DNA from: Escherichia coli 042
GTDB lineage: Bacteria > Pseudomonadota > Gammaproteobacteria > Enterobacterales > Enterobacteriaceae
Length of the DNA stretch: 64,000 bases
Assembly: GCF_000027125.1 (NCBI RefSeq)
Contig: NC_017626.1
Direction: 5' to 3' (one strand)
The notes under the pieces were generated by a model, which did not search any database, was not told the DNA's origin, and saw nothing but the letters and a program-made list of their open reading frames with translations. Below, piece after piece: positions 7,266 to 49,134 of this stretch (position 1 is the stretch's first letter; every line of letters starts with the position of its first letter). The translations under genes were made by a program, and so were the position numbers.

Positions 7266-7865
7266 ATGCGTAAATTATGTGCTGTTATTCTGTCCGCAGT
7301 AGTCTGGCTGGTTGCCGCTGGTACGCCAGCGAGCGCAGCAGAGCATCAGTCCACACTAAGCGCCGGGTATCTTCAGGCCCATACTGATATGCCAGGCAGT
7401 GATGACCTGAAGGGCATTAACGTGAAATACCGTTATGAATTTACGGACACGCTGGGGCTGGTGACGTCATTCAGTTATGCCAATGCCAAAGATGAGCAAA
7501 AAACGCATTACAGCGATACCCGCTGGCATGAAGATTCAGTGCGTAACCGCTGGTTCAGCATGATGGCGGGGCCATCTGTACGCGTGAATGAATGGTTCAG
7601 TGCTTATGCGATGGCAGGTGTGGCTTACAGCCGTGTTTCGACGTTCTCCGGGGATTATCTCCGCGTAACTGACAACAAGGGGAAAACGCACGATGTGCTG
7701 ACCGGAAGTGATGACGATCGCCACAGCAACACGTCTCTGGCGTGGGGAGCTGGCGTGCAGTTTAACCCGACCGAATCCGTGGCCATTGATATTGCTTATG
7801 AAGGCTCCGGCAGTGGCGACTGGCGCACTGACGGTTTCATCGTGGGTGTCGGTTATAAGTTCTGA
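7266..7865 (+). CDS. lom: Lom/Ail/PagC-family outer membrane beta-barrel protein (lambda lom-like moron)
   Basis: 199 aa; signal peptide ending ASA; C-terminal ...GVGYKF aromatic terminus typical of OMPs; position between J and stf as in lambda. Confidence 0.8.
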   Translation: MRKLCAVILSAVVWLVAAGTPASAAEHQSTLSAGYLQAHTDMPGSDDLKGINVKYRYEFTDTLGLVTSFSYANAKDEQKTHYSDTRWHEDSVRNRWFSMMAGPSVRVNEWFSAYAMAGVAYSRVSTFSGDYLRVTDNKGKTHDVLTGSDDDRHSNTSLAWGAGVQFNPTESVAIDIAYEGSGSGDWRTDGFIVGVGYKF

Positions 7866-7923: not shown

Positions 7924-10305
7924 GTGGATATGGCAGCAGTAAAAATCTCAGGTGTGCTGAAAGATGGTGCGGGAAAACCAATACAGAACTGCACTATTCA
8001 ACTGAAGGCAAAGCGTAACAGCACCACGGTACTGGTGAACACGGTGGCCTCTGAAAATCCGGATGAAGCCGGGCGTTACAGCATGGATGTTGAGTATGGT
8101 CAGTACAGCGTCACCCTGCTGGTTGAAGGTTTTCCGCCTTCACATGCCGGGACCATTACCGTCTATGAAGGTTCCAGACCAGGTACGCTGAATGATTTTC
8201 TCGGTGCCATGACGGAAGATGATGTCATGCCGGAGGCATTGCGTCGTTTTGAGGAAATGGTGGAAGAAGCGGCACGCAACGCTGAAGCCGCCTCTCAGAG
8301 CGCAGCGGCGGCAAAGAAATCCGAAACTGCAGCGGCATCATCGAAGAACGCGGCGAAAACCTCAGAAACGAATGCAGCTAACAGCGCACAGGCGGCAGCG
8401 GCCTCGCAGACTGCATCGGCAAACTCCGCAACAGCAGCTAAAAAATCAGAAACCAACGCGAAAAATAGCGAGACAGCCGCAAAGACGAGCGAAACCAACG
8501 CAAAGTCCAGCCAGACGGCAGCGAAGACCAGCGAAACGAATGCCAAAGCCAGTGAAACTGCGGCAAAAAACAGCCAGGTTGCAGCAGCCCAAAGCGAGAG
8601 CGCGGCAGCCGGTTCTGCGACTTCAGCAGCTGGATCAGCAACTGCTACGGCTAACAGCCAGAAAGCTGCGAAGACGAGTGAAACTAACGCAAAGTCCAGC
8701 CAGACGGCAGCGAAGACCAGCGAAACGAATGCCAAAGCCAGTGAAACTGCGGCGAAAAGCAGTCAGGATGCAGCGGCTCAAAGCGAGAGTGCCGCAGCCA
8801 GTTCTGCAAGCGCGGCGGCTGCTTCTGCCACTGCATCAGCTAACAGTCAAAAAGCAGCAAAAACCAGTGAAACCAACGCAAAGGTGAGCGAAACAGCGGC
8901 AGCGAACTCAGCGAAAGCATCGGCAGCAAGCCAGACGGCAGCTAAAGCAAGCGAAGATGCAGCCAGAGAGTACGCAAGCCAGGCTGCGGAGCCGTATAAA
9001 TATGTCTTACAGCCGCTGCCTGATGTGTGGATACCATTTAACGATTCGCTGGATATGATTACGGGCTTTTCGCCGTCATATAAAAAAATTGTTATTGGTG
9101 ACGATGAAATAACGATGCCTGGCGACAAGATTGTTAAGTTTAAACGTGCATCGAAAGCAACCTATATTAACAAATCTGGTGTGCTGACAGAGGCTGCCAT
9201 TGACGAGCCACGATTTGAACGTGATGGCCTGCTTATTGAGGGGCAAAGAACAAACTACATGCTCAATTCGGAAAGCCCTGCCAGTTGGGGGCGATCTTCA
9301 AATATGGATGTGCCCGAAACAGGGACGGATAATTTTGGTTTTACCTATGGAAAGTTTGTCTGCAACGATTCTCTGATTGGGCAAACCTCAGCCATTAATA
9401 TGGCATCAATTGCTGCAACAAAGTCAGTTGATGTCTCAGGCGATAATAAACACGTGACAACCTCATGTCGTTTTAAAACAGAACTGCAGGTAAGGTTGCG
9501 TATCCGGTTTGATAAATATGACGGTAGCGCAACAACTTTTCTTGGTGATGCGTATATTGATACACAAACGCTTGAAATTAATATGACAGGCGGTGCTGCC
9601 TCAAGGATTACAGCGAGAGTCAGAAAGGACGAAGCTACCGGATGGATTTTTGCAGAGGCAACAATTCAGGCAATTGATGGGGAGCTAAAAATAGGCTCTC
9701 AGATACAGTATTCTCCTAAGCAGAGCGGGGCAACCGTATCTGGTGACTATATTTATCTGGCCACCCCACAAGTAGAAGATGGGCCTTGTGTATCATCTTT
9801 TATTATATCAGGAGCGACGGCGGCGACCCGCGCAAGCGATATAGTTACAGTTCCAATTAAGAATAATCTTTATAATCTTCCTTTTACGGTTCTTTGTGAG
9901 GTACATAAGAACTGGTATAAAACGCCAAATGCAGCGCCACGTGTTTTTGATACCGGCGGTCATCAAACCGGAGCGGCTATTATTCTTGGCTTCGGTCGTT
10001 CAACAGATTACGACGGATTTCCTTATTGCGATATTGGAGGAGCTAACAGACGGGTAAACGAAAACGCATCGCTTGAAAAAATGGTTATGGGGATGCGTGT
10101 AAAGTCAGAGCAGTCTACGTGCTCAGTAAGTAACGGGCATATATCCAGCGAAACAAAAACCACATGGTCCTGTATTCAGAACACCGCAATTATCCGTATT
10201 GGAGGCCAGACTACAGCCGGGTTACGTCATTTATTTGGTCATGTCAGGAATTTCAGAATATGGCACAAGGCATTGACTGATGCTCAGGTGGGGGAGTCAA
10301 TCTAA
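7924..10305 (+). CDS. side tail fibre protein (Stf-like) with collagen-like Ala/Ser/Thr repeat shaft and divergent C-terminal domain
   Basis: N-terminal ~100 aa match the recalled lambda Stf N-terminus (MA.VKISGVLKDG.GKP.QNCTIQLKA...); KTSETNAK repeat shaft; C-terminal half (from ~nt 9000) visibly lower GC. Confidence 0.75.
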   Translation: MDMAAVKISGVLKDGAGKPIQNCTIQLKAKRNSTTVLVNTVASENPDEAGRYSMDVEYGQYSVTLLVEGFPPSHAGTITVYEGSRPGTLNDFLGAMTEDDVMPEALRRFEEMVEEAARNAEAASQSAAAAKKSETAAASSKNAAKTSETNAANSAQAAAASQTASANSATAAKKSETNAKNSETAAKTSETNAKSSQTAAKTSETNAKASETAAKNSQVAAAQSESAAAGSATSAAGSATATANSQKAAKTSETNAKSSQTAAKTSETNAKASETAAKSSQDAAAQSESAAASSASAAAASATASANSQKAAKTSETNAKVSETAAANSAKASAASQTAAKASEDAAREYASQAAEPYKYVLQPLPDVWIPFNDSLDMITGFSPSYKKIVIGDDEITMPGDKIVKFKRASKATYINKSGVLTEAAIDEPRFERDGLLIEGQRTNYMLNSESPASWGRSSNMDVPETGTDNFGFTYGKFVCNDSLIGQTSAINMASIAATKSVDVSGDNKHVTTSCRFKTELQVRLRIRFDKYDGSATTFLGDAYIDTQTLEINMTGGAASRITARVRKDEATGWIFAEATIQAIDGELKIGSQIQYSPKQSGATVSGDYIYLATPQVEDGPCVSSFIISGATAATRASDIVTVPIKNNLYNLPFTVLCEVHKNWYKTPNAAPRVFDTGGHQTGAAIILGFGRSTDYDGFPYCDIGGANRRVNENASLEKMVMGMRVKSEQSTCSVSNGHISSETKTTWSCIQNTAIIRIGGQTTAGLRHLFGHVRNFRIWHKALTDAQVGESI
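8461..8900 (+). repeat. in-frame 189-bp tandem direct repeat (~2.3 copies) inside the side tail fibre gene
   Basis: CAAAGTCCAGCCAGACGGCAGCGAAGACCAGCGAAACGAATGCCAAAGCCAGTGAAACTGCGGC occurs at 8501 and 8690; unit starts near 8461, 8650, 8839. Confidence 0.75.
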
Positions 10306-10586
10306 TGAAAGATTTAACACTCAAATTTGCCGACAGGGCCGACTTTTCGGCCTTTATGGATAGCACTGGCTATTATGATGACGAGTCGATGCAGGATGAT
10401 ATTCTTATTGACGTGATAGGTAACGTGTACAAAGAAACCGGAGAACTGACTGAAGATGGCGAACCGGTATGTGTTAAGGAAGACGGATATTTTGTAAACG
10501 TGCGCATCATTAATGATTCGCAAATATCGTCATTATTCGATGAATACGTGGTTGCTGTTGAGCATCAACTTCGTGGCTGGATGTGA
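10305..10586 (+). CDS. hypothetical protein, translationally coupled to the tail fibre gene (possible fibre assembly/chaperone factor)
   Basis: 93 aa acidic protein; ATG overlaps the stf stop (TAATG); no recognised motif. Confidence 0.4.
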   Translation: MKDLTLKFADRADFSAFMDSTGYYDDESMQDDILIDVIGNVYKETGELTEDGEPVCVKEDGYFVNVRIINDSQISSLFDEYVVAVEHQLRGWM

Positions 10587-10595
10587 GGAAGAAAA

Positions 10596-11636
10596 ATGGC
10601 TACATCGACAGTAATTCCTGATGACATCAAAACGCTAAAATCCGACGTTAGCAAATTAAAAAACGATCAAGGAAGCTACGCAACAAAATTATATGTAGAC
10701 AGCAAAGATGAAATCGTTGGTGACTGGTCTGCTTCATGGTATCAGCAGGTATTGCCAACTAGCGGAGCTATATTTGGGAGAAAACTCCGCTCAACTCACA
10801 GGACGGCAGGTGTTGAGGATGCGTATTGCGAACTATACCTCAAAAAATGGATAGACAGTCCAGGTAACGCAATGGCGCGCCTTAACCTGAACGATAACGG
10901 GACAAACATTTGCTGGGACTTTACCAACCTTTATGGCGGTACGATGATTTTTCCCGGTGACAGCGGATACCTCAAAATGGGTAACTGCCTTATGTCATAC
11001 AGCAAGCGTGGAAGTAACGCGCTTATTAAATTTGATTACACCGACACATTACAGATCAAATATGCCAATCATGGGTCAACCATGACATTAAACACACAGG
11101 GAACCGCTTATGCTGGTGTTACTGCTCAATTGTGGGGCAACACCAGCCGTCCTGTTGTTTATGAAGTCGGTGTTGATGGTGGCGCTTATATGTTCTATGC
11201 GCAGAAAAATACCGATAACACCTATATGTTAAGCGTTAATGGTGCATGTCATGCCACCGCATTTAACCAGCATTCCGACCGGGATCTGAAAGACAACATT
11301 CAGGTGATCGATAATGCAACCGACCGCATCCGTAAAATGAACGGCTATACATACACGCTTAAAGAAAACGGTATGCCCTATGCTGGTGTCATTGCACAGG
11401 AAGCTCTGGAAGCAATCCCAGAAGTTGTAGGTTCCGCAATGAAATATCAGGACGGTGCGAGCGGATCGGAAGGTGAAGAAGGTGAACGTTATTACACAGT
11501 AGATTATTCTGGTGTTACTGGCTTGCTTGTTCAGGTAGCCAGAGAGTCAGACGACAGAATAACAGCACTGGAAGAAGAAAACGCAGAATTAAGACAAAGA
11601 TTATCTGCAATTGAGGCGGCGCTTGCGTCTAAATAA
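10596..11636 (+). CDS. tail fibre/spike protein with C-terminal intramolecular chaperone (peptidase S74-like) domain
   Basis: 346 aa; GAGGAAG SD upstream; C-terminal HSDRDLKDNI motif matching the S-D-x-R-x-K-x-N-I autocleavage signature, followed by a coiled-coil tail. Confidence 0.6.
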   Translation: MATSTVIPDDIKTLKSDVSKLKNDQGSYATKLYVDSKDEIVGDWSASWYQQVLPTSGAIFGRKLRSTHRTAGVEDAYCELYLKKWIDSPGNAMARLNLNDNGTNICWDFTNLYGGTMIFPGDSGYLKMGNCLMSYSKRGSNALIKFDYTDTLQIKYANHGSTMTLNTQGTAYAGVTAQLWGNTSRPVVYEVGVDGGAYMFYAQKNTDNTYMLSVNGACHATAFNQHSDRDLKDNIQVIDNATDRIRKMNGYTYTLKENGMPYAGVIAQEALEAIPEVVGSAMKYQDGASGSEGEEGERYYTVDYSGVTGLLVQVARESDDRITALEEENAELRQRLSAIEAALASK

Positions 11637-18067: not shown

Positions 18068-18294
18068 TGAATAAATCCTTTAGTTATTTTATTTGCCTTT
18101 TATCCCCATTTCGGGGAGTGAAAACATCCTAAAGGAGATGTTCAGTTAGCCGATAAATATCATTTGTTACGCCTTAAGTAAAACCTTAATCAAATAATTC
18201 TTCTGAAATGATAATAAGTCTGGTGAATGTATTGGAGATAATACATACAAAATAAAAATTATACTTTTAATTTGCTATACGTTATTCTGCGCGG

Positions 18295-18404
18295 GTTATA
18301 TGCCTTTATTGTCACAGATTTTATTTTCTGTTGGGCCATTGCATTGCCACTGATTTTCCAACATATAAAAAGACAAGCCCGAACAGTCGTTCGGGCTTTT
18401 TTTT
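18295..18404 (+). ncRNA. micC: MicC small regulatory RNA
   Basis: Sequence GTTATATGCCTTTATTGTCACAG...GCCCGAACAGTCGTTCGGGCTTTTTTTT matches the recalled MicC; terminator hairpin plus T-run; located between ompN and ydbK as in K-12. Confidence 0.8.
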
Positions 18405-18432
18405 AGAATTGGATAATTCTTATCCAGAGCAT

Positions 18433-29630: not shown

Positions 29631-31937
29631 GTGCATATGTTTAAGCCCAGGATTTGCAGCTGGATAGGTTTACTTCCCCTGTTTATGCTGAGTCTTCCAG
29701 TACAGGCGGAACTTCGATGTGTTGCAAATGCAGTTGATATTGAACCATTTTTTTCTGCGGCTACCGCTGAAGATAAACAACAAGTTGAACAAGCTATCAA
29801 CAGTAGCGTGAATCTTGTCCCCTTCGGTTTATCTGCATCGGACTGGAAAGTGCATCGTGGCGATTTAGTGGTTGACGGTAATATAGAGAGTAATCAAAAA
29901 TTGATTGTTCTTGGCAATTTGACAGTCAAAGGTAATATTTCCACTTTCTCTCTTTCTAATCCATGGATTATTCTCGGTAACGTGACGGCAACGAATATAG
30001 TTACGGATTCACCACTGTTAATTACCGGTTCGATAAATGCAAGTGGACTGGTATTTATCGACTCATATTACGATAATCCGTCTACGATTAAGGGGAGTAT
30101 TAATGCGCGTGGGATATTTATCAATGACATAATTGCACCTGTTGTTGTGTCTTCGACAAATAGTGAATTCATGGTCCGTGCGGGAGACAAAAATGACACT
30201 GAAAATGTCAAAAAAGCGCTGACGATAATAAATCCTGATGCATATTATTGGGGCCTAATAAATGATGAAGATGCTCTGAAAGAAATTTTTAAGCGAAGCA
30301 ATATTCGCATAGCAGGGAATGTCTGTAATCAGATGAAAAAAGAAGCGCTGTTTCGCCCTAAGCCTTCACCTGAATTAGTGCAGGAATTGCAAATGCTGGA
30401 TGAAGGCAAAGTTGCTGCATTTGAAGGGCGAGACATTGCGACATTTGATCTTGCCATAATGCGAACTCTCCCAAGGCTTAAAGGAATTTCAGCTAACCTA
30501 CGCAAACAACTTATTAATAGCAATGATGAACAAACGATTGAAAGTATGGCGAGATATATGCCTGACAATGAGATTCTGGAGTTGACCGATCAGCAATTGG
30601 GTTACCAGCCTGTGGTTCTGGGGTTGCTCAACCGTGAACCGCTCTCTGTCGAAATAATGACGCGAATTAGCCATCTACCTGATGGTGCCGGTCCGTTGAA
30701 TCTTGCGCTACGTGAAAATCTCCCTCTGGATATCGTCATGACTCTGGCGAAAAGAGATTGGGTCATTGAGGGGCTTTATAAAGATGCATGGTTATTGCCC
30801 GAATCCATTATAGATGGCTATATCCGCAGTGATGATCCCACAATTCGTCAGGTCGGTGCTGGAGGACAACTCACCTACAATCAGGCAATGCAGTTGGCGA
30901 AAGATTCATCAAAAAATGTTGTCACAAACTTAGCGTTCAAGCTGGCAGAGATGAAACACCATGGTCAATTGTTGCGGATGACACCACAAGAGAGTGACAA
31001 AATAGCAGTATATTTATACCAAAAATTCGAGAATGACGATGATCTAATAGGTACGTTATTTTTAGCGTTGCCAGATAACTTACAGTTTAATTTTGTTAAA
31101 AGGATGGAGAAAAAATCCCCTGCCTACTTTTGCTGTCGGGATATGCAGATAATTCACTCTGACGCTGCTTTACAACGGTTATTGACACGTTTCAACGATC
31201 CTGAGGGGTGGAGTAATTTGGCGAAAAATCAGTATCTGAGCACGTCGATGAAACAAAAAATTTGGCAACGTGCTTTATCGCATCGGAAAAATAATCCGAA
31301 AGCAGATTCTGCAGCATATGAAACCAGCGCTGATATGATTTTGTCTGAGCTGATTAGCCACGGTGAAGTTGATGACCAGATGCTATTAAATGCCACCTCT
31401 CTGATACGTTCGGAAGGCTGGGACTTTTTAGAGAGTGCATTAGTTAGTTGGGATAATTTACCCGCTGTTGTCCTCAAGGAATTACAGCAAAATATGCCAC
31501 GCAATGATATTTGGGCGAAGTTTTTTCTGAGGCAGGAAAACAGCTCTCGTGCGCAGGTTAACGAAGCGTTACGTGTTTATTATGCACTTGACCCCGATGC
31601 ATTAGCACAACTGGATAAACTGGCAAAACAACCGGATCGTATATGGTGGAGTACACTGGCGAAAAGCAATCTCACATTTTTCAAGTTCGGCGCACTTAAC
31701 AACCACCACACACCGCCTGCAGTACTGGCGGCAGAAATTGATCCCGAGTGGTGGATTGTGGCGATGAATAATCCCCGTTTTCCAGTTGATATATTAAAGG
31801 CGAGGCTGAAACGTGATCCTTTGCTGGCGTTAGAGCTTGTTAACCCTGAACTGGATTTAGTTCGGCAGCTGGCGCTTAACGGTAAGACGCGCGCAATACG
31901 GGAACAAGCGATGAGAAAACTTGATGAGTTGTATTGA
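29631..31937 (+). CDS. ydbD: uncharacterised protein YdbD
   Basis: 768 aa with signal peptide; K-12 synteny. Confidence 0.7.
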   Translation: MHMFKPRICSWIGLLPLFMLSLPVQAELRCVANAVDIEPFFSAATAEDKQQVEQAINSSVNLVPFGLSASDWKVHRGDLVVDGNIESNQKLIVLGNLTVKGNISTFSLSNPWIILGNVTATNIVTDSPLLITGSINASGLVFIDSYYDNPSTIKGSINARGIFINDIIAPVVVSSTNSEFMVRAGDKNDTENVKKALTIINPDAYYWGLINDEDALKEIFKRSNIRIAGNVCNQMKKEALFRPKPSPELVQELQMLDEGKVAAFEGRDIATFDLAIMRTLPRLKGISANLRKQLINSNDEQTIESMARYMPDNEILELTDQQLGYQPVVLGLLNREPLSVEIMTRISHLPDGAGPLNLALRENLPLDIVMTLAKRDWVIEGLYKDAWLLPESIIDGYIRSDDPTIRQVGAGGQLTYNQAMQLAKDSSKNVVTNLAFKLAEMKHHGQLLRMTPQESDKIAVYLYQKFENDDDLIGTLFLALPDNLQFNFVKRMEKKSPAYFCCRDMQIIHSDAALQRLLTRFNDPEGWSNLAKNQYLSTSMKQKIWQRALSHRKNNPKADSAAYETSADMILSELISHGEVDDQMLLNATSLIRSEGWDFLESALVSWDNLPAVVLKELQQNMPRNDIWAKFFLRQENSSRAQVNEALRVYYALDPDALAQLDKLAKQPDRIWWSTLAKSNLTFFKFGALNNHHTPPAVLAAEIDPEWWIVAMNNPRFPVDILKARLKRDPLLALELVNPELDLVRQLALNGKTRAIREQAMRKLDELY

Positions 31938-32107
31938 ATAACAGCGTAATAATTTTTAACCACTTGATTTATTGGGGATAATCATTCCTGACGGTGAGTC
32001 CCCAATACCTTGATATATTCTGAATTTTTAATGAAGCGGCGTGTTACGATATCTCCGTCAGGGGAATTGATGCACCATAGCGCAAACCGAATTATCAAGG
32101 ATTGATA

Positions 32108-32713
32108 ATGACGCTCTACCAGATAAAACCGCTCTTTCAGTCGCTGTTAAGGCCGACGATGTTTTGGCTTAATAAGCACCATGTTACAGCGAATCACATC
32201 ACTCTTGCTGCACTGGCACTTTCTCTTCTTAGCGGATTGCTGTTGATGTTGGTGGCACAACCCATCCTCTTTTTGCTATTGCCTATCGTGCTTTTTATCC
32301 GTATGGCGCTCAATGCGCTGGATGGCATGATGGCGCGTGAGTGCAATCAGCAAACACATCTTGGGGCGATTTTGAATGAAACAGGCGATGTTATTTCCGA
32401 TATTGCGCTTTATTTACCGTTTTTATTTTTACCGGAAAGTAACGCATCACTCGTAATACTCATGTTATTTTGCACCATATTGACTGAGTTTTGCGGTTTA
32501 CTCGCGCAGACGATTAACGGTATTCGCAGTTATGCCGGTCCATTTGGCAAAAGCGATCGCGCGTTAATATTTGGTCTGTGGGGTCTGGCCATTGCCATTT
32601 ATCCACAGTGGATGCAATGGAATAATCTTTTATGGGGCATTGCTTCAATTCTGCTTCTCTGGACTGCGATTAATCGTTGTCGGAGTGTGCTTTTTATGAG
32701 TGCAGAAAGATAA
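32108..32713 (+). CDS. ynbA: CDP-alcohol phosphatidyltransferase family protein
   Basis: 201 aa; motif DG..AR...G...D...D; membrane protein; first gene of ynbABCD. Confidence 0.8.
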   Translation: MTLYQIKPLFQSLLRPTMFWLNKHHVTANHITLAALALSLLSGLLLMLVAQPILFLLLPIVLFIRMALNALDGMMARECNQQTHLGAILNETGDVISDIALYLPFLFLPESNASLVILMLFCTILTEFCGLLAQTINGIRSYAGPFGKSDRALIFGLWGLAIAIYPQWMQWNNLLWGIASILLLWTAINRCRSVLFMSAER

Positions 32714-32853
32714 TGCTGGAAAAATCTCTGGCAACACTTTTCGCGTTGTTAATTTTAGCAACGCTGATAAACCGTTTTCTGATATGGCGGTTACCGGAGA
32801 GAAAAGGGGGTGAGGTTACATTACGTATTCGTACCTGGTGGGGCATCGTCATT

Positions 32854-32862
32854 TGTTTTTCA
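32854..32862. repeat. IS1 target-site duplication, left copy (TGTTTTTCA)
   Basis: Identical 9-mer directly flanks both IS1 ends. Confidence 0.9.
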
Positions 32863-32877
32863 GGTAATGACTCCAAC

Positions 32878-33255
32878 TTATTGATAGTGTTTTATGTTCA
32901 GATAATGCCCGATGACTTTGTCATGCAGCTCCACCGATTTTGAGAACGACAGCGACTTCCGTCCCAGCCGTGCCAGGTGCTGCCTCAGATTCAGGTTATG
33001 CCGCTCAATTCGCTGCGTATATCGCTTGCTGATTACGTGCAGCTTTCCCTTCAGGCGGGATTCATACAGCGGCCAGCCATCCGTCATCCATATCACCACG
33101 TCAAAGGGTGACAGCAGGCTCATAAGACGCCCCAGCGTCGCCATCGTGCGTTCACCGAATACGTGCGCAACAACCGTCTTCCGGAGACTGTCATACGCGT
33201 AAAACAGCCAGCGCTGGCGCGATTTAGCCCCGACATAGCCCCACTGTTCGTCCAT
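32878..33255 (-). CDS. insB: IS1 InsB (made as the InsAB' transposase by -1 frameshift)
   Basis: 125 aa from first Met; matches recalled IS1 InsB (...[18 protein letters not shown]). Confidence 0.85.
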
Positions 33256-38324: not shown

Positions 38325-41300
38325 ATGACAGAACAACAAAAATTGACCTTTACGGCCTTGCAGCAGCGGCTGGATTCGCTGATGCTGCGCGACAGACAGC
38401 GTTTTTCTCGCCGTCTGCACGGCGTGAAGAAGGTTAAAAATCCTGATGCACAACAGGCCATTTTCCAGGAGATGGCGAAAGAGATTGACCATGCGGCAGG
38501 GAAAGTCCTGCTGCGTGAAGCGGCACGACCGGAAATCACTTATCCGGACAATTTGCCGGTTAGTCAGAAAAAGCAGGACATTCTCGAAGCAATTCGTGAT
38601 CACCAGGTAGTGATCGTCGCCGGGGAAACGGGTTCCGGTAAAACGACTCAGCTACCGAAAATCTGTATGGAGCTGGGCCGCGGGATTAAAGGGCTGATCG
38701 GCCATACCCAGCCGCGTCGTCTGGCGGCGCGAACGGTGGCGAACCGTATTGCGGAAGAGCTGAAAACGGAGCCGGGCGGTTGCATCGGTTACAAAGTGCG
38801 TTTCAGCGATCACGTAAGTGATAACACGATGGTCAAGCTGATGACCGACGGTATCCTGCTGGCGGAGATCCAGCAAGACCGCCTGCTGATGCAGTACGAC
38901 ACCATCATTATTGACGAAGCGCACGAACGCAGCCTGAATATCGATTTTCTGCTCGGCTATTTGAAAGAGTTGCTGCCGCGGCGTCCTGACCTAAAAATCA
39001 TTATCACTTCCGCGACTATCGACCCGGAACGCTTTTCGCGCCACTTTAATAATGCGCCGATTATCGAAGTCTCCGGTCGGACCTATCCGGTGGAAGTGCG
39101 CTATCGCCCGATTGTTGAAGAAGCCGATGATACCGAGCGCGATCAGTTGCAGGCGATTTTTGACGCTGTAGACGAACTGAGCCAGGAAAGCCCTGGCGAC
39201 ATTCTGATCTTTATGAGTGGTGAGCGGGAAATTCGCGATACCGCCGATGCGCTGAACAAGCTGAACTTACGCCATACCGAAATCTTGCCGCTTTATGCGC
39301 GGCTTTCGAACAGCGAACAGAACCGCGTGTTCCAGTCGCACAGTGGACGGCGCATTGTGCTGGCGACCAACGTCGCGGAAACCTCGCTGACCGTACCGGG
39401 GATTAAATACGTTATCGACCCAGGTACGGCGCGTATCAGCCGCTACAGCTATCGCACTAAAGTGCAGCGTTTGCCGATTGAGCCGATTTCTCAGGCGTCT
39501 GCCAACCAGCGTAAAGGCCGCTGTGGTCGTGTGTCAGAAGGGATCTGTATTCGTCTCTATTCGGAAGATGATTTCCTGTCGCGCCCGGAGTTTACCGATC
39601 CGGAGATTCTGCGTACCAACCTGGCCTCGGTTATTTTACAGATGACCGCGTTGGGGCTGGGTGATATCGCCGCGTTCCCATTTGTCGAAGCGCCGGATAA
39701 ACGTAATATCCAGGATGGCGTGCGTCTGCTCGAAGAGCTGGGCGCGATCACCACTGATGAACAGGCCAGCGCCTATAAACTGACGCCGCTCGGTCGCCAG
39801 CTTTCGCAATTGCCTGTCGATCCTCGTCTGGCGCGTATGGTGCTGGAAGCGCAAAAACATGGCTGCGTGCGTGAGGCGATGATTATCACGTCCGCGCTCT
39901 CCATCCAGGATCCGCGCGAACGACCGATGGACAAACAGCAGGCATCGGACGAAAAACATCGTCGCTTCCACGACAAAGAATCCGACTTCCTCGCGTTTGT
40001 AAATCTGTGGAATTATCTTGGCGAGCAGCAAAAGGCGCTTTCTTCCAACGCCTTCCGTCGCCTGTGTCGTACCGATTATCTCAACTATCTGCGCGTGCGC
40101 GAATGGCAGGATATCTACACCCAGTTGCGCCAGGTAGTAAAAGAACTTGGCATTCCAGTTAACAGCGAACCGGCGGAGTATCGCGAAATTCACATCGCCT
40201 TACTGACCGGTTTGCTTTCCCATATCGGCATGAAAGATGCCGATAAACAAGAATATACCGGCGCACGTAACGCGCGTTTTTCCATCTTTCCCGGTTCTGG
40301 TTTATTCAAAAAGCCGCCGAAATGGGTAATGGTGGCGGAACTGGTAGAAACCAGCCGCCTGTGGGGGCGCATTGCGGCACGCATCGATCCAGAATGGGTG
40401 GAGCCAGTTGCTCAGCATTTAATTAAACGCACCTACAGCGAACCACACTGGGAACGGGCGCAGGGCGCGGTGATGGCAACGGAAAAAGTCACCGTTTACG
40501 GGTTGCCGATTGTTGCCGCGCGTAAGGTCAACTACAGCCAGATCGATCCGGCGTTATGTCGTGAACTCTTTATTCGCCACGCGCTGGTGGAAGGTGACTG
40601 GCAGACACGTCATGCATTCTTCCGTGAAAACCTGAAACTGCGGGCTGAAGTGGAAGAACTGGAACACAAAACACGTCGCCGCGATATTCTGGTGGATGAC
40701 GAAACGCTGTTTGAGTTTTATGACCAGCGCATCAGCCACGATGTGATCTCTGCACGTCACTTCGACAGCTGGTGGAAAAAAGTCAGCCGCGAAACGCCTG
40801 ATTTGCTCAACTTTGAAAAGAGCATGTTGATCAAAGAAGGGGCGGAAAAGATCAGCAAGCTGGATTACCCGAACTTCTGGCATCAGGGCAATCTCAAACT
40901 GCGTTTGAGCTATCAGTTTGAGCCGGGGGCAGATGCTGACGGTGTGACTGTGCATATCCCGCTGCCGTTACTTAACCAGGTTGAGGAGAGCGGGTTTGAG
41001 TGGCAGATCCCCGGTCTGCGCCGCGAACTGGTGATTGCTCTGATTAAATCGTTGCCGAAACCAGTACGCCGTAATTTTGTGCCCGCGCCAAACTACGCCG
41101 AAGCTTTTTTAGGCCGCGTCACACCGCTGGAATTGCCGTTGCTCGACAGCCTTGAACGAGAGCTGCGGCGGATGACTGGCGTCACCGTTGACCGCGAAGA
41201 CTGGCACTGGGATCAGGTGCCCGATCACCTGAAAATCACCTTCCGCGTGGTGGATGACAAAAACAAGAAGCTAAAAGAAGGGCGCTCATTACAGGATCTG

Positions 41301-42227
41301 AAAGATGCTCTGAAAGGCAAAGTGCAGGAAACGCTGTCTGCGGTGGCGGATGACGGTATCGAGCAGAGCGGCTTACATATCTGGAGTTTTGGGCAACTGC
41401 CGGAAAGCTACGAACAGAAGCGTGGCAACTACAAAGTGAAGGCGTGGCCAGCGTTGGTGGATGAGCGCGACAGCGTGGCGATCAAACTGTTTGATAACCC
41501 GCTGGAACAAAAGCAGGCAATGTGGAACGGTCTTCGCCGTTTACTGCTGCTGAATATTCCGTCGCCAATCAAATATTTGCATGAGAAGTTGCCAAACAAA
41601 GCCAAACTTGGGCTGTACTTTAACCCGTATGGCAAAGTGCTGGAGCTGATAGACGACTGTATCTCCTGCGGTGTGGATCAACTGATCGACGCCAATGGTG
41701 GCCCGGTCTGGACGGAAGAAGGCTTTGCTGCGCTGCATGAAAAAGTCCGCGCTGAACTGAACGACACGGTGGTGGATATTGCGAAGCAGGTCGAGCAAAT
41801 CCTTACGGCAGTGTTCAATATCAACAAACGCCTGAAAGGGCGGGTGGATATGACCATGGCGCTGGGGCTTTCTGACATTAAAGCGCAGATGGGCGGGCTG
41901 GTGTATCGCGGTTTTGTCACTGGCAACGGTTTTAAACGGCTGGGCGACACGCTGCGTTATTTGCAGGCGATTGAAAAACGACTGGAAAAACTGGCGGTTG
42001 ATCCGCATCGCGACCGTGCTCAGATGCTGAAAGTCGAAAATGTCCAGCAGGCGTGGCAGCAGTGGATCAACAAACTGCCGCCTGCACGTCGTGAGGATGA
42101 AGACGTGAAAGAGATCCGTTGGATGATAGAAGAGTTGCGCGTCAGCTACTTCGCTCAACAACTTGGTACGCCTTATCCGATTTCGGATAAGCGTATTTTG
42201 CAGGCGATGGAGCAGATTAGCGGTTAA
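38325..42227 (+). CDS. hrpA: ATP-dependent RNA helicase HrpA (DEAH-box)
   Basis: 1300 aa; Walker A GETGSGKTTQ, DEAH box IIIDEAHERS. Confidence 0.9.
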   Translation: MTEQQKLTFTALQQRLDSLMLRDRQRFSRRLHGVKKVKNPDAQQAIFQEMAKEIDHAAGKVLLREAARPEITYPDNLPVSQKKQDILEAIRDHQVVIVAGETGSGKTTQLPKICMELGRGIKGLIGHTQPRRLAARTVANRIAEELKTEPGGCIGYKVRFSDHVSDNTMVKLMTDGILLAEIQQDRLLMQYDTIIIDEAHERSLNIDFLLGYLKELLPRRPDLKIIITSATIDPERFSRHFNNAPIIEVSGRTYPVEVRYRPIVEEADDTERDQLQAIFDAVDELSQESPGDILIFMSGEREIRDTADALNKLNLRHTEILPLYARLSNSEQNRVFQSHSGRRIVLATNVAETSLTVPGIKYVIDPGTARISRYSYRTKVQRLPIEPISQASANQRKGRCGRVSEGICIRLYSEDDFLSRPEFTDPEILRTNLASVILQMTALGLGDIAAFPFVEAPDKRNIQDGVRLLEELGAITTDEQASAYKLTPLGRQLSQLPVDPRLARMVLEAQKHGCVREAMIITSALSIQDPRERPMDKQQASDEKHRRFHDKESDFLAFVNLWNYLGEQQKALSSNAFRRLCRTDYLNYLRVREWQDIYTQLRQVVKELGIPVNSEPAEYREIHIALLTGLLSHIGMKDADKQEYTGARNARFSIFPGSGLFKKPPKWVMVAELVETSRLWGRIAARIDPEWVEPVAQHLIKRTYSEPHWERAQGAVMATEKVTVYGLPIVAARKVNYSQIDPALCRELFIRHALVEGDWQTRHAFFRENLKLRAEVEELEHKTRRRDILVDDETLFEFYDQRISHDVISARHFDSWWKKVSRETPDLLNFEKSMLIKEGAEKISKLDYPNFWHQGNLKLRLSYQFEPGADADGVTVHIPLPLLNQVEESGFEWQIPGLRRELVIALIKSLPKPVRRNFVPAPNYAEAFLGRVTPLELPLLDSLERELRRMTGVTVDREDWHWDQVPDHLKITFRVVDDKNKKLKEGRSLQDLKDALKGKVQETLSAVADDGIEQSGLHIWSFGQLPESYEQKRGNYKVKAWPALVDERDSVAIKLFDNPLEQKQAMWNGLRRLLLLNIPSPIKYLHEKLPNKAKLGLYFNPYGKVLELIDDCISCGVDQLIDANGGPVWTEEGFAALHEKVRAELNDTVVDIAKQVEQILTAVFNINKRLKGRVDMTMALGLSDIKAQMGGLVYRGFVTGNGFKRLGDTLRYLQAIEKRLEKLAVDPHRDRAQMLKVENVQQAWQQWINKLPPARREDEDVKEIRWMIEELRVSYFAQQLGTPYPISDKRILQAMEQISG

Positions 42228-42253
42228 CCCTGCTATTTGCCTGATAAATCTCA

Positions 42254-42286
42254 AACCCGGTAAGCATTTAGCGCCGGGTTTTTTCT
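42254..42286 (+). terminator. rho-independent terminator after hrpA
   Basis: AACCCGG...CCGGGTT hairpin followed by TTTTTTCTTT. Confidence 0.5.
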
Positions 42287-42372
42287 TTATGAATTCTGAA
42301 AAATAGCAAGGGCGGTACTATTTTACATAAGTTACATTCATACTCTGCCCATGGTAAACAGGACGTATTGCA

Positions 42373-42507
42373 ATGAGTAGGCATGATATTTTAATGAGAT
42401 CGTATTATGAGCGAATAATAGAGCTTGATTGCGTCGGTCAGGCTTTAATCTCTTTCTATGAAAAACTTCCAGAGGAAATTTTATCAGAAAATAATGGATT
42501 GGATTAA
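42373..42507 (+). CDS. possible small ORF (44 aa) at the start of the AT-rich insertion
   Basis: ATG-initiated frame MSRHDILMRSYYERIIELD...; weak SD; overlaps the longest reading of the next ORF in another frame, so at most one reading is real. Confidence 0.2.
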   Translation: MSRHDILMRSYYERIIELDCVGQALISFYEKLPEEILSENNGLD

Positions 42508-42511
42508 TAGT

Positions 42512-42850
42512 ATGAAAAATGTAGACAATATTATCTGGCATGATGGTGTTTTAGTTGAAACAAGAATGGAATGTCACCACGCCGGGTATAATTTTATATT
42601 GACGACAGAACTTTATGTTGATGAATTTACAGCCGGAAGGGAACGAAAAAGATTCGAGTTTACAGGAGTGGAACATTTATCGCAGGTTATGGATATTGCT
42701 GAGCTTATAGATAACCAAAACGCAGGTAATATTAAAGATGCGACAATTGTTTATAAGGCAAAGAAGTATGAAATTTCACTTCATTTGTTTGGCGGTTTTT
42801 TAAGTTTTACATTTAAAACCATGCGAGTTGTTGACAATGAATTTGAGTAA
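42512..42850 (+). CDS. hypothetical protein (112 aa; 130 aa if started at 42458), AT-rich insertion ORF 1
   Basis: Same-strand ORF in visibly AT-rich DNA; no recognisable motif; contains ECHHAGY. Confidence 0.4.
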   Translation: MKNVDNIIWHDGVLVETRMECHHAGYNFILTTELYVDEFTAGRERKRFEFTGVEHLSQVMDIAELIDNQNAGNIKDATIVYKAKKYEISLHLFGGFLSFTFKTMRVVDNEFE

Positions 42851-43286
42851 TGCCAAATGCGACAAATTGTCTTTTTATGAAGAAAAAATCCGCTGGCGAA
42901 TGCGTCGGCAAATCTCGAATGCAGAGGCAATATTTTACGAGAATCAGGAAGAACACATTCAGCGCTTTTTAGGCAGATATACCTGTCGCAAACCGGTTCT
43001 TGTTTATTGGGAAAGTGAACAAAGATGGACATCTGTAAACGGTCTGGAAGTGATGAGTATGTTTGATGGGCATTGTCATCACATCTACCTTGATGATATC
43101 AATAAAAAAATACAAGCTGAATTACCTGAAGATAAAACATTAGGTTTCAAACGTCAATTGCAATTTTTCAGTTTAGGGGATGAGAAGATTAGAATATGGG
43201 TGCCACAGGGGGAATTATATTTCGCATTAATGAATGTATTGCAGATGTTCCCCCTGAAGAAAATGGTTAATGACTGGACAAGGTAA
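42837..43286 (+). CDS. hypothetical protein (149 aa), AT-rich insertion ORF 2
   Basis: ATG overlaps the 3' end of the previous ORF by 14 nt; contains HCHHIYL; no recognisable domain. Confidence 0.4.
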   Translation: MNLSNAKCDKLSFYEEKIRWRMRRQISNAEAIFYENQEEHIQRFLGRYTCRKPVLVYWESEQRWTSVNGLEVMSMFDGHCHHIYLDDINKKIQAELPEDKTLGFKRQLQFFSLGDEKIRIWVPQGELYFALMNVLQMFPLKKMVNDWTR

Positions 43287-43404
43287 TTTCAAATCACAGT
43301 AATGTCCATCGATTATACATGGTACGTAAACAGACTCGCACCGTTTTTGCAGAAGGTTAATGTGTGTCTATTGAGTGCAGTCTCATATATGAAGGGGTAT
43401 TGAC

Positions 43405-43782
43405 ATGGATGAATGTTTTATAAATATCACTCCGACTTCATTGTCTTTTAAAAACGCCGATCTGTCAGATTTAAGCTATAAAAATGCCAGGCTTGAACTT
43501 ACCCTGATATGCCCGGCGATCAAGTCAGAAGTTAAGTTATCATTTGACTGGATACATTCATTTCGTGTTACTGACGAAGGTGATTTGTTAGGAATGTCAG
43601 GAATGCACGGTATTAACCAAACAGGTATCTATAGAGTAGTGAATTCCGCCTATTTTTCATGGTTTACTATGCAAAGTTGTGAAATTTATAAAAATAATGT
43701 GATCGAGCATTATGTCATTGCCACGTCAAATGATGTTATTGATGTTTTATCAACAGTTTCTCCGCAAATACAGTATGACTAA
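43405..43782 (+). CDS. hypothetical protein (125 aa), AT-rich insertion ORF 3
   Basis: SD-like AAGGGG 8 nt upstream of ATG; no recognisable domain. Confidence 0.45.
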   Translation: MDECFINITPTSLSFKNADLSDLSYKNARLELTLICPAIKSEVKLSFDWIHSFRVTDEGDLLGMSGMHGINQTGIYRVVNSAYFSWFTMQSCEIYKNNVIEHYVIATSNDVIDVLSTVSPQIQYD

Positions 43783-43897
43783 AACCAGTGTCTGGTTCGC
43801 GATGGCGAGGTAGAAAAAGCATCATCTTCCTTTCAGAGTGCTCCGCTTCTCATTATTATCTCACGCAGTATTCTTAAGGAAACGATAAGGAGGAACC

Positions 43898-44698
43898 ATG
43901 AACATTACCCCGTTTCCGACGCTTTCGCCGGCAACCATAGATGCCATAAATGTTATCGGTCAGTGGCTGGCGTAGGATGATTTCTCCGGTGAGATGCCGT
44001 ATCAGGCCGATTGCGTGATCCTTGCAGGCAATGCGGTTATGCCAACTATCGATGCGGCATGCAAGATTGCCCGCGATCAGCAAATTCCTCTACTGATTAG
44101 TGGTGGTATCGGTCACTCGACAACTTTTTTGTATAGTGCCATCGCACAGCATCCGCACTACAACACTATCCGCACCACTGGCAGAGCAGAAGCTACCATC
44201 CTGGCGGATATCGCTCATCAGTACTGGCACATTCCGCATGAAAAAATCTGGATTGAAGACCAGTCAACAAACTGCGGTGAAAACGCACGCTTTAGCATCT
44301 CGCTATTGAATCAGGCCGTAGAACGAGTTCATACGGCTATCGTTGTTCAGGACCCCACAATGCAGCGGCGCACGATGGCGACGTTCCGCCGTATGACTGG
44401 GGACAATCCCGATGCACCACGCTGGTTAAGTTATCCCGGATTCGTTCCTCAGCTAGGAAACAACGCAGACAGTGTAATCTTTGTTAATCCGTTGCAAGGA
44501 TTATGGCCGGTTGAGCGTTATCTCTCACTACTCACTGGCGAGCTGCCACGTTTACGCGATGATAGCGATGGCTACGGTCCACGCGGGCGAGATTTTATCG
44601 TTCACGTTGATTTTCCGGCAGAAGTCATCCAGGCATGGCAAACGCTGAAACACGATGCGGTGCTCATCGAGGCGATGGAAAGTCGCTCGTTACGTTAA
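43898..44698 (+). pseudogene. ydcF: ydcF (DUF218 family) carrying an in-frame amber stop at codon 26
   Basis: ATG with AAGGAGG SD at 43898; TAG at 43973-43975 after ...GQWLA; frame continues ...[18 protein letters not shown]... to 44698 (266 codons total). The track ORF restarts at 43994. Confidence 0.7.
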
Positions 44699-48106: not shown

Positions 48107-48170
48107 AAGAAAACGCCTGTACTAAAACCGACCCGTGGTACAGGCGAAGAATACGGGTCTACATCGGAAG
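48107..48170 (-). ncRNA. rydC: RydC small RNA
   Basis: Minus-strand sequence CTTCCGATGTAGACCCGTATTCTTCGCCTGTACCACGGGTCGGTTTTAGTACAGGCGTTTTCTT matches the recalled RydC; immediately downstream of cybB. Confidence 0.7.
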
Positions 48171-48586: not shown

Positions 48587-48736
<150 letters not shown>

Positions 48737-49134
48737 AGCCTTTCTCCTTGCCGGATGGCGGGTAAGAGGCTAAGATCTGAATTGCTAGGTTCATTCGTTG
48801 GCCTCGGTTGATAGAAATATCGGTCGGGGCCTTCGTCTTTCTGATTCCCGGTTAGCCTGAAAACAGAAAGTCTCAGGCACCCGTGAGCATCCTATGTGGT
48901 TTCCTTAGGGACGAAAATAATCACCTGACGAAATTGCGTGCTGTTTTCCAGAATTTTTCGTCATTCGGTTTAGCCAGTTTAATCATTCGTTACTCTCTTC
49001 ATTCCAATGGCATTATTCTTCTCTGCCATAATTGTTGTAAAAATGTGACGCAAAGAGGTTTTTGGTCGTAAGAAATTACCGTCAAGTGCCGATGACTTTC
49101 TATCAGGAGTAAACCTGGAAGAGAGTCAACGGTA

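Follow-up and report, generated by a model that had tools for sequence, protein, structure and literature searches.

Within a 64,000-nucleotide stretch of DNA from Escherichia coli 042 (NC_017626.1; hereafter the window), the conserved genes hrpA, encoding an ATP-dependent RNA helicase, and ydcF, encoding a DUF218 protein, are separated by a variable, AT-rich cassette of ~1.5 kb. It contains three intact open reading frames (ORFs) on the same strand (ORF2, ORF3 and ORF4) and one broken gene, i.e., a 44-codon remnant (ORF1). On the evidence presented below, these genes probably form an orphan immunity array without toxins of its own, directed against polymorphic toxins delivered by cell contact, in which each protein would neutralise one incoming CdiA-CT or Rhs-CT by direct binding.

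The interval between hrpA and ydcF

The stop codon of hrpA, the terminator hairpin that follows it, the start of ydcF and all of the ORFs lie where a preliminary description, made by inspection of the DNA, had placed them (Table 1). The same description stated that hrpA and ydcF are adjacent in E. coli K-12, and the intergenic region there is indeed only 271 bp long. The hrpA terminator hairpin is also found in this K-12 intergenic sequence, showing that the terminator lies outside the cassette. In the alignment, K-12 and the window had in common the hrpA terminator and, at the other end, the 73 bp immediately preceding ydcF, while the place of the cassette was taken in K-12 by ~128 bp of unrelated filler. 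We considered whether the filler was a decayed remnant of the cassette, but rejected this, because its local alignment score was 12 compared with a mean of 11.6 for shuffled sequences.

Table 1. Positions of genes and other features at the hrpA–ydcF locus, numbered from the first nucleotide of the window
Feature	Position	Strand	Basis
hrpA (ATP-dependent RNA helicase), conserved left flank	38325..42227	+	1300-aa ORF; annotated hrpA in all matching genomes
hrpA intrinsic terminator, hairpin and U-run	42253..42287	+	-14.8 kcal/mol, z = -3.15; stem 42253-42281
Variable AT-rich segment (cassette)	42302..43824 (approximate)	none	pairwise alignment to K-12; GC 0.33-0.41
ORF1 remnant (44 codons)	42373..42507	+	alignment to O157 allele; RefSeq pseudogene in GF60 and CE2050
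ORF2 (112 aa), predicted Rhs-toxin immunity protein	42512..42850	+	family motif, toxin-adjacent homologues
ORF3 (149 aa), predicted Rhs/CDI-type immunity protein	42837..43286	+	Salmonella homologue context, CdiI_3 fusion, AlphaFold2 (AF2) model
ORF4 (125 aa), predicted orphan CdiI immunity protein	43405..43782	+	CdiA-adjacent homologues, family alignment
ydcF (DUF218), conserved right flank	43898..44698	+	annotation; translation, comparison with GF60

The GC content, calculated in 200-bp windows, fell from 0.50-0.58 in hrpA to 0.33-0.41 over positions ~42300-43800, and returned to ~0.50 in ydcF, the overall value for the flanks being ~0.52. This bears out the AT-richness that had been noted by eye for the ~1.6-kb interval. 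At a resolution of 1 kb, the cassette accounts for the lowest-GC 2 kb of the entire window; other stretches of moderately low GC content (0.43-0.45), less extreme than that of the cassette, are present at positions 1-2000, 9000-11000 and 30000-33000.

ORF2 and ORF3 overlap by 14 nt. The genome of strain GF60 differs from the window at just 2 of 4,670 bases, and its RefSeq annotation contains the same three coding sequences (CDSs), with the 5' part of the 44-codon ORF described as a truncated pseudogene. The latter frame had been put forward as a possible small ORF; its coordinates stand, but it is not a standalone gene, being the stump of a longer one that has suffered a ~280-bp deletion relative to O157:H7. 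The encoded protein is 141 residues long in O157:H7 and ~180 residues long in the wider family, and the O157 copy is already divergent at its C-terminus.

No integrase or insertion sequence (IS) is annotated at the cassette locus, and a search of its boundaries for flanking direct, inverted, att-like or terminal repeats yielded short chance matches only. Toxin remnants were not detected by tblastn in either the window or the O157 allele, and the cassette, flanked by hrpA and ydcF, has no cdi, rhs or vgrG neighbour.

Homologues of the cassette proteins at Rhs and CdiA loci

None of the four proteins gave a significant match in searches of NCBIfam, PADLOC (5,027 models), PHROGs, Pfam or the sequences in PDB, and profiles constructed from the ORF families gave nothing significant against PDB. 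When ~105 family members were scanned singly against the Pfam immunity families, the sole match was that of a fused protein to CdiI_3, while a word-indexed search for homologues of ORF2 and ORF3 returned Escherichia/Shigella sequences only. An exhaustive phmmer search was made with one concatenated query comprising ORF1 (in its O157 version), ORF2 and ORF3, and recovered 151 proteins, which fell into three families cleanly separated by their query coordinates. Although the ORFs had at first appeared to resemble nothing recognisable, exhaustive HMMER searching placed each of them in a sizeable family.

The cassette proteins contain no nuclease, kinase, helix-turn-helix (HTH) or membrane domains, and no transmembrane or signal segments (maximal Kyte-Doolittle hydropathy over 19 residues <1.0); ORF2 and ORF4 are acidic. 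A Cys-His-His tripeptide present in two of the proteins, ORF2 and ORF3, had been taken as a hint that they were paralogous, but BLASTP comparisons between the ORFs gave either E = 2.2 or no alignment at all. Since the ORFs are not paralogues, the common tripeptide can be put down to chance. No homologues of ORF2 or ORF3 were found on plasmids, and there was no mention of this locus or these accessions in the literature searched.

Alignment of 39 members of the ORF2 family revealed a signature, i.e., WHDG...R...ELxDNxxAGNI, and when this was converted to a degenerate DNA pattern and scanned over contigs from one genome per species, seven loci were obtained. In Citrobacter youngae, a full Rhs is followed by an orphan Rhs-CT and, 17 bp beyond that, by the ORF2 homologue. 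In Paraburkholderia lycopersici the homologue abuts the stop codon of a large Rhs, with a PAAR gene alongside, and in an uncultured gammaproteobacterium the homologue and the end of an Rhs-CT overlap. All three partner toxins have the same domain after the end of the DPxGL core (SGxWKDCGxGCRIRID...GRHLHWEC...SHG), followed by a hydrophobic tail that in two of the three corresponds to Pfam Tox-WTIP at 9e-17. The Cys/His-rich module that precedes the Tox-WTIP membrane tail in these Rhs C-terminal toxins (locus L033, 7058-7441; L024, 2845-3285; L026, 2065-2440) is uncharacterised. The same toxin/immunity pair is present in ~400 E. coli genomes, at a vgrG-rhs locus near yncH/ydcC, and the immunity protein of that pair is 37% identical to ORF2 (E = 1e-20). 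ORF2 family members are thus placed as an RhsI would be, i.e., directly after an Rhs-CT past the PxxxxDPxGL motif, with the same toxin domain in C. youngae, P. lycopersici, the uncultured gammaproteobacterium and E. coli.

Tox-WTIP was described as a predicted two-helix pore-forming module, linked to RHS and with no immunity protein recorded (Zhang et al., 2012), and the ORF2 family plausibly fills this gap for Rhs toxins with a Tox-WTIP tail. In addition, the structural model of ORF2 matches a solved immunity protein, PIM7 (PDB: 8OWU), which protects against the DNase toxin PT7 (bioRxiv 10.1101/2021.10.19.465003). The partner toxins are different, PIM7 occurring with LXG-PT7 in Firmicutes and ORF2 with the Rhs Cys/His module plus Tox-WTIP. 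We predict that ORF2 confers immunity to Rhs toxins in which the Cys/His-rich module is combined with the Tox-WTIP tail.

The ORF3 family has >50 members. A homologue from Salmonella enterica, 42% identical to ORF3, is located in an Rhs orphan array linked to a type VI secretion system (T6SS), in the company of VipA/B, Hcp, VgrG, CdiI_3, CDI_Immunity_Comp and DUF4279. At this locus (L017) the Rhs-CT is intact, and the likely TTG start of the immunity gene overlaps the last codons of the toxin, so that in this one species the ORF3 homologue has the placement of an RhsI. In another homologue (P0082/P0232) the ORF3-like part is joined to a CdiI_3 domain, and NCBI designates the protein a contact-dependent inhibition (CDI) immunity protein. 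The AF2 model of ORF3 (predicted local distance difference test score, pLDDT, 90.5) consists of a PH-like beta-sandwich preceded by a long N-terminal helix.

Relatives of ORF4, ~45% identical, were found by a large-database search in Duffyella, Pantoea, Erwinia, Cedecea, Citrobacter and other genera, with an invariant core of FDWxHSFRVTDEGDLL...HY.I.T..DVIDVLSS.P. Three loci in Duffyella gerundensis encode a homologue (P0023) beginning 6 bp downstream of a CdiA (Fil_haemagg_2 + PT-VENN) that is annotated as a hemagglutinin-repeat protein. These loci are on a plasmid/integrative and conjugative element (ICE) and on the chromosome; upstream of the chromosomal one lies the part of CdiA with the TPS domain. 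Immediately downstream of the Duffyella cdiI homologue, and convergent to it, is a type I toxin gene of the SymE family (8434-8766, minus strand, in L005-L007). In Cedecea neteri the ORF4 homologue is part of a long orphan array that includes PT-VENN, CdiA_C, EndoU, CdiA_C_tRNase, Ntox33 and CdiI_3 genes, and tblastn revealed a frameshifted remnant of the Duffyella-type toxin domain ending directly upstream of it. On a Cronobacter plasmid, the homologue comes after a 13-residue remnant of a Duffyella-type toxin, in an array with MafI and Imm42. Members of the family are therefore found in the position of cdiI, directly downstream of the 3' end of cdiA, and ORF4 is predicted to be a CdiI-type protein. 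Because tblastn detected no toxin remnant in the window or the O157 allele, and the flanking genes are hrpA and ydcF, ORF4 is an orphan and not part of a CDI locus.

The catalytic parts of the toxins paired with ORF3 and ORF4 had no match in Pfam, NCBIfam or PDB, and in the partner of ORF4 only the linker region resembles the E. coli CdiA tRNase (PDB: 5J43). When the Salmonella and Duffyella toxin domains were sought in E. coli at the DNA level, nothing was found other than the common linker segment. This linker (NPN[VI]GKDLT.EEK.ELGG.GSG..GWGP.DEE) is common to the Salmonella Rhs-CT (L017, ~8560-8700), the Duffyella CdiA-CT (L007, ~7420-7700) and the E. coli tRNase, a similarity which suggests that Rhs and CdiA toxins share an entry or translocation segment.

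The proteins of the ORF1 family are small and helical. Members occur in arrays of small genes downstream of a full Rhs, and in Neisseria zalophi a homologue lies in an array with Rhs fragments and Imm15; no adjacent toxin was found for this family at the loci examined.

PH-like and all-beta folds are generic, and one might argue that the cassette encodes ordinary small housekeeping or regulatory proteins, whose proximity to toxins elsewhere is a coincidence. We find this barely credible, because polymorphic-toxin genes in different genera have representatives of three unrelated families overlapping their 3' ends or only a few bases away, and because the homologues co-occur with named immunity families, i.e., CdiI_3, Imm15, Imm42, MafI, DUF4279 and SMI1/KNR4.

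Solitary homologues of ORF4 in Citrobacter and Pantoea are situated beside Gabija-like (AAA_15/OLD-TOPRIM + UvrD helicase) or BrxC/TerB-type genes (L010, 2270-5409; L012, 8576-11340; L013, 8592-14416), and in those genomes immunity and phage-defence genes share islands. These neighbours, the 14-nt overlap of ORF2 with ORF3, and the AT-rich, accessory nature of the DNA would all be compatible with a small toxin-antitoxin or anti-phage module, in which ORF2 and ORF3 would be a translationally coupled toxin/antitoxin pair and ORF4 an accessory protein. A toxin-antitoxin or defence module had been suggested in the preliminary description, but we regard it as very unlikely: there was no match to any PADLOC model and none of significance in PHROGs, Pfam or NCBIfam, the proteins lack the nuclease, kinase, HTH or membrane domains mentioned above, and there is no toxin partner. 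Moreover, homologues of ORF2 and ORF3 do not form a conserved pair but are found apart, next to different Rhs toxins, and the fold of ORF2 matches an immunity protein.

The function favoured by the evidence is the other one that had been suggested, i.e., an array of orphan immunity proteins: in other bacteria, Rhs or CdiA toxin domains directly precede homologues of ORF2, ORF3 and ORF4, and there is also the match between the ORF2 model and a solved immunity protein. In the mechanism that we envisage, a neighbouring bacterium would inject a toxin, either CdiA via the type V (CDI) pathway or Rhs via the T6SS. A small, soluble cytoplasmic protein would then bind one particular toxin domain after its injection and block it, allowing the carrier to survive attack by strains deploying toxins that it does not itself encode. 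ORF4 would act as the CdiI-type protein, ORF2 and ORF3 would provide immunity to Rhs toxins, and the ORF1 stump would represent a decayed fourth member. The exact toxin variants that would be neutralised, and protection in this strain, are inferred.

Distribution and maintenance of the cassette

At a coverage of >=80%, the cassette was present in 584 of 5,426 complete E. coli genomes (10.8%), including O157:H7, with the short "empty" form occurring in K-12, B, W and most other strains. Two main classes of allele were distinguished. The first (~97.5% identical), with ORF1 truncated as in the window, comes from a variety of human, dog and bird isolates; the second (~91.7% identical), found in O157:H7 and its relatives, is ~280 bp longer and has a 141-residue first gene. 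All 34 of the full-length carriers that were sampled had four CDS features annotated under the cassette. A further ~190 genomes retain just its last ~90 bp. One of these, TUM14759, keeps only the 3' end of ORF4, and has at the same site an SMI1/KNR4 gene (164 residues) on the opposite strand and a 99-residue gene (L003, 1134-1924). A 126-residue protein, P0055, consists of residues 1-94 of ORF1 fused to the C-terminal 32 residues of ORF4, and is a deletion derivative of the O157-type cassette without ORF2 and ORF3.

Small genes of immunity type, without mobility genes, were also observed 3' of hrpA in other genera of Enterobacteriaceae (L011, L014, L018, L019-L021). One locus has a lone ORF2-like gene; elsewhere there are ORF1-like and ORF2-like genes with a 217-residue gene, or DUF596 with a CdiI_3::ORF3-like fusion and LprI, or an ORF2-like gene with LprI and two small genes. 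The proposal of an accessory cassette at a core intergenic site is upheld by its absence from K-12 and its presence in about 11% of complete E. coli genomes, although a simple insertion is too plain a description: the site has four or more alleles in E. coli, and different immunity-type genes occupy it in further genera of Enterobacteriaceae. Taken together with the SMI1/KNR4 allele of E. coli, the genes in other genera suggest that the site 3' of hrpA repeatedly accumulates toxin-less immunity genes. A stronger version, which we put forward only tentatively and think less probable than the immunity function itself, is that this site is a conserved collection point for such genes across the Enterobacteriaceae, operating without a mobile element through homologous recombination of the core flanks. 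Its cargo would then comprise four previously undescribed immunity families, one of them the missing partner of the Tox-WTIP-tailed Rhs toxins.

Three alleles with DNA sequences 2.5-8% different from one another all have intact copies of ORF2, ORF3 and ORF4. The ratio of nonsynonymous to synonymous substitution rates (dN/dS), calculated by the Nei-Gojobori method from few substitutions, was 0.23-0.60 for ORF2, 0.36-0.82 for ORF3 and 0.11-0.30 for ORF4, and for ORF2 and ORF4 pooled, comparing the window with O157, it was 0.27.

A number of observations weigh against the proposal of an immunity array. No cognate toxin with a near-identical immunity partner was found and, because ORF2 is only 37% identical to the immunity protein of the E. 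coli Rhs-WTIP pair and the specificity of immunity proteins is usually high, that pair does not fix the actual target of ORF2. The four families are not immunity families in Pfam or NCBIfam, so that their assignment comes from context and one fold match, and in that match ORF2 and PIM7 are just 15% identical in sequence, with no profile-level similarity. For ORF3, the adjacency to a toxin is from a single species, comparison of the model with PDB gave matches to PH-like folds and none specific to immunity proteins, and the dN/dS of 0.36-0.82 is compatible with relaxed constraint. ORF1 has already decayed, indicating that the array is eroding. Promoter-like sites in the cassette were not enriched (5 found, 7.2 expected), and the cassette is placed after the hrpA terminator; expression of its genes is therefore only presumed.

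Several of these points would also be explained by the main rival hypothesis, i.e., that the cassette has no function and is decaying, being either what remains of an ancient rhs/cdi orphan array or a passenger in recombination of the flanks, and that it is silent (e.g., as AT-rich DNA bound by H-NS) and is being lost by deletion. The lack of a promoter signal, the dN/dS of up to 0.82 for ORF3, and the decay of ORF1, already shortened in O157 and reduced to 44 codons in the window, all fit this idea, as do the existence of deletion derivatives (the P0055 fusion, and the ~190 genomes with the last ~90 bp only) and the absence of the cassette from ~89% of genomes. Against it, ORF2, ORF3 and ORF4 are intact in all three alleles, dN/dS is 0.11-0.31 for most comparisons of ORF2 and ORF4, the 34 sampled full-length carriers all have their four annotated features, and the invariant motifs of the families are kept. 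We judge a relic to be unlikely, and an array of orphan immunity genes to be the probable explanation.

Two observations concern the window outside the cassette. In this strain ydcF has an in-frame TAG at 43973-43975, changing codon 26 from Gln to a stop (GF60 has CAG), and the ATG at 43994 could reinitiate translation to give a 234-residue product; the TAG is either a strain-specific nonsense mutation or a sequencing error. Rfam matches above the gathering threshold to MicC, RydC and the sok antitoxin RNA, at 18292-18412, 48107-48170 and 48731-48882, are ordinary E. coli features.

Relationship to known arrays of immunity genes

Tandem immunity genes, small, unrelated and on a single strand, are likewise contained in orphan cdiA-CT/cdiI and rhs-CT/rhsI modules (Poole et al., 2011; PMC3150448), and homologues of ORF2, ORF3 and ORF4 occur both in arrays of this type and directly after CdiA-CT or Rhs-CT domains. 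Classical orphan arrays, however, follow a full cdiBAI or rhs locus and retain toxin-encoding CT fragments, whereas the cassette has neither a cdi, rhs or vgrG neighbour nor a toxin fragment, and lies between two housekeeping genes.

A further parallel is provided by the acquired interbacterial defence (AID) clusters of gut Bacteroidales, which are toxin-less immunity arrays, patchy among strains and thought to protect against contact-dependent toxins (Ross et al., 2019; bioRxiv 10.1101/471110). With its three or four unrelated genes of immunity type, its lack of a toxin and its variable presence in E. coli, the cassette resembles them. AID clusters are reportedly on mobile elements or associated with recombinases, in contrast to the cassette, which has no integrase, IS or att-like repeat. 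They also differ from it in host, the cassette being in Enterobacteriaceae, and in that its predicted target toxins are Rhs (T6SS) and CdiA (type V secretion). If the site is a collection point for immunity genes, it might be viewed, by analogy, as the proteobacterial counterpart of the AID clusters.

SMI1/KNR4 belongs to the SUKH superfamily, a known superfamily of immunity proteins. The gene of this type at the same site in another E. coli allele supports the idea that the site collects immunity genes, although none of ORF1-ORF4 matches SMI1/KNR4 or any other immunity family in Pfam.

Orphan immunity genes and AID clusters are already established (PMC3150448; bioRxiv 10.1101/471110), and the cassette extends this known theme. 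What is notable about it is the lack of a toxin, of an rhs or cdi neighbour and of a mobile element, the recurrence at a core site across genera, and the four families that are absent from Pfam and NCBIfam. For these families, all currently "hypothetical proteins", the results provide testable annotations, and three of them are now paired with largely uncharacterised toxin domains: ORF2 with the Rhs Cys/His module and Tox-WTIP tail, ORF3 with the Salmonella Rhs-CT, and ORF4 with the Duffyella/Cedecea CdiA-CT. If functional, the genes would give about one in nine lineages of E. coli, O157:H7 included, antidotes to Rhs and CdiA toxins that they do not make, and this would affect the outcome of contact-dependent competition in the gut. 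Should the site also prove to be a collection point, the cassette would shape which Rhs- or CDI-armed competitors are resisted by lineages such as O157:H7.

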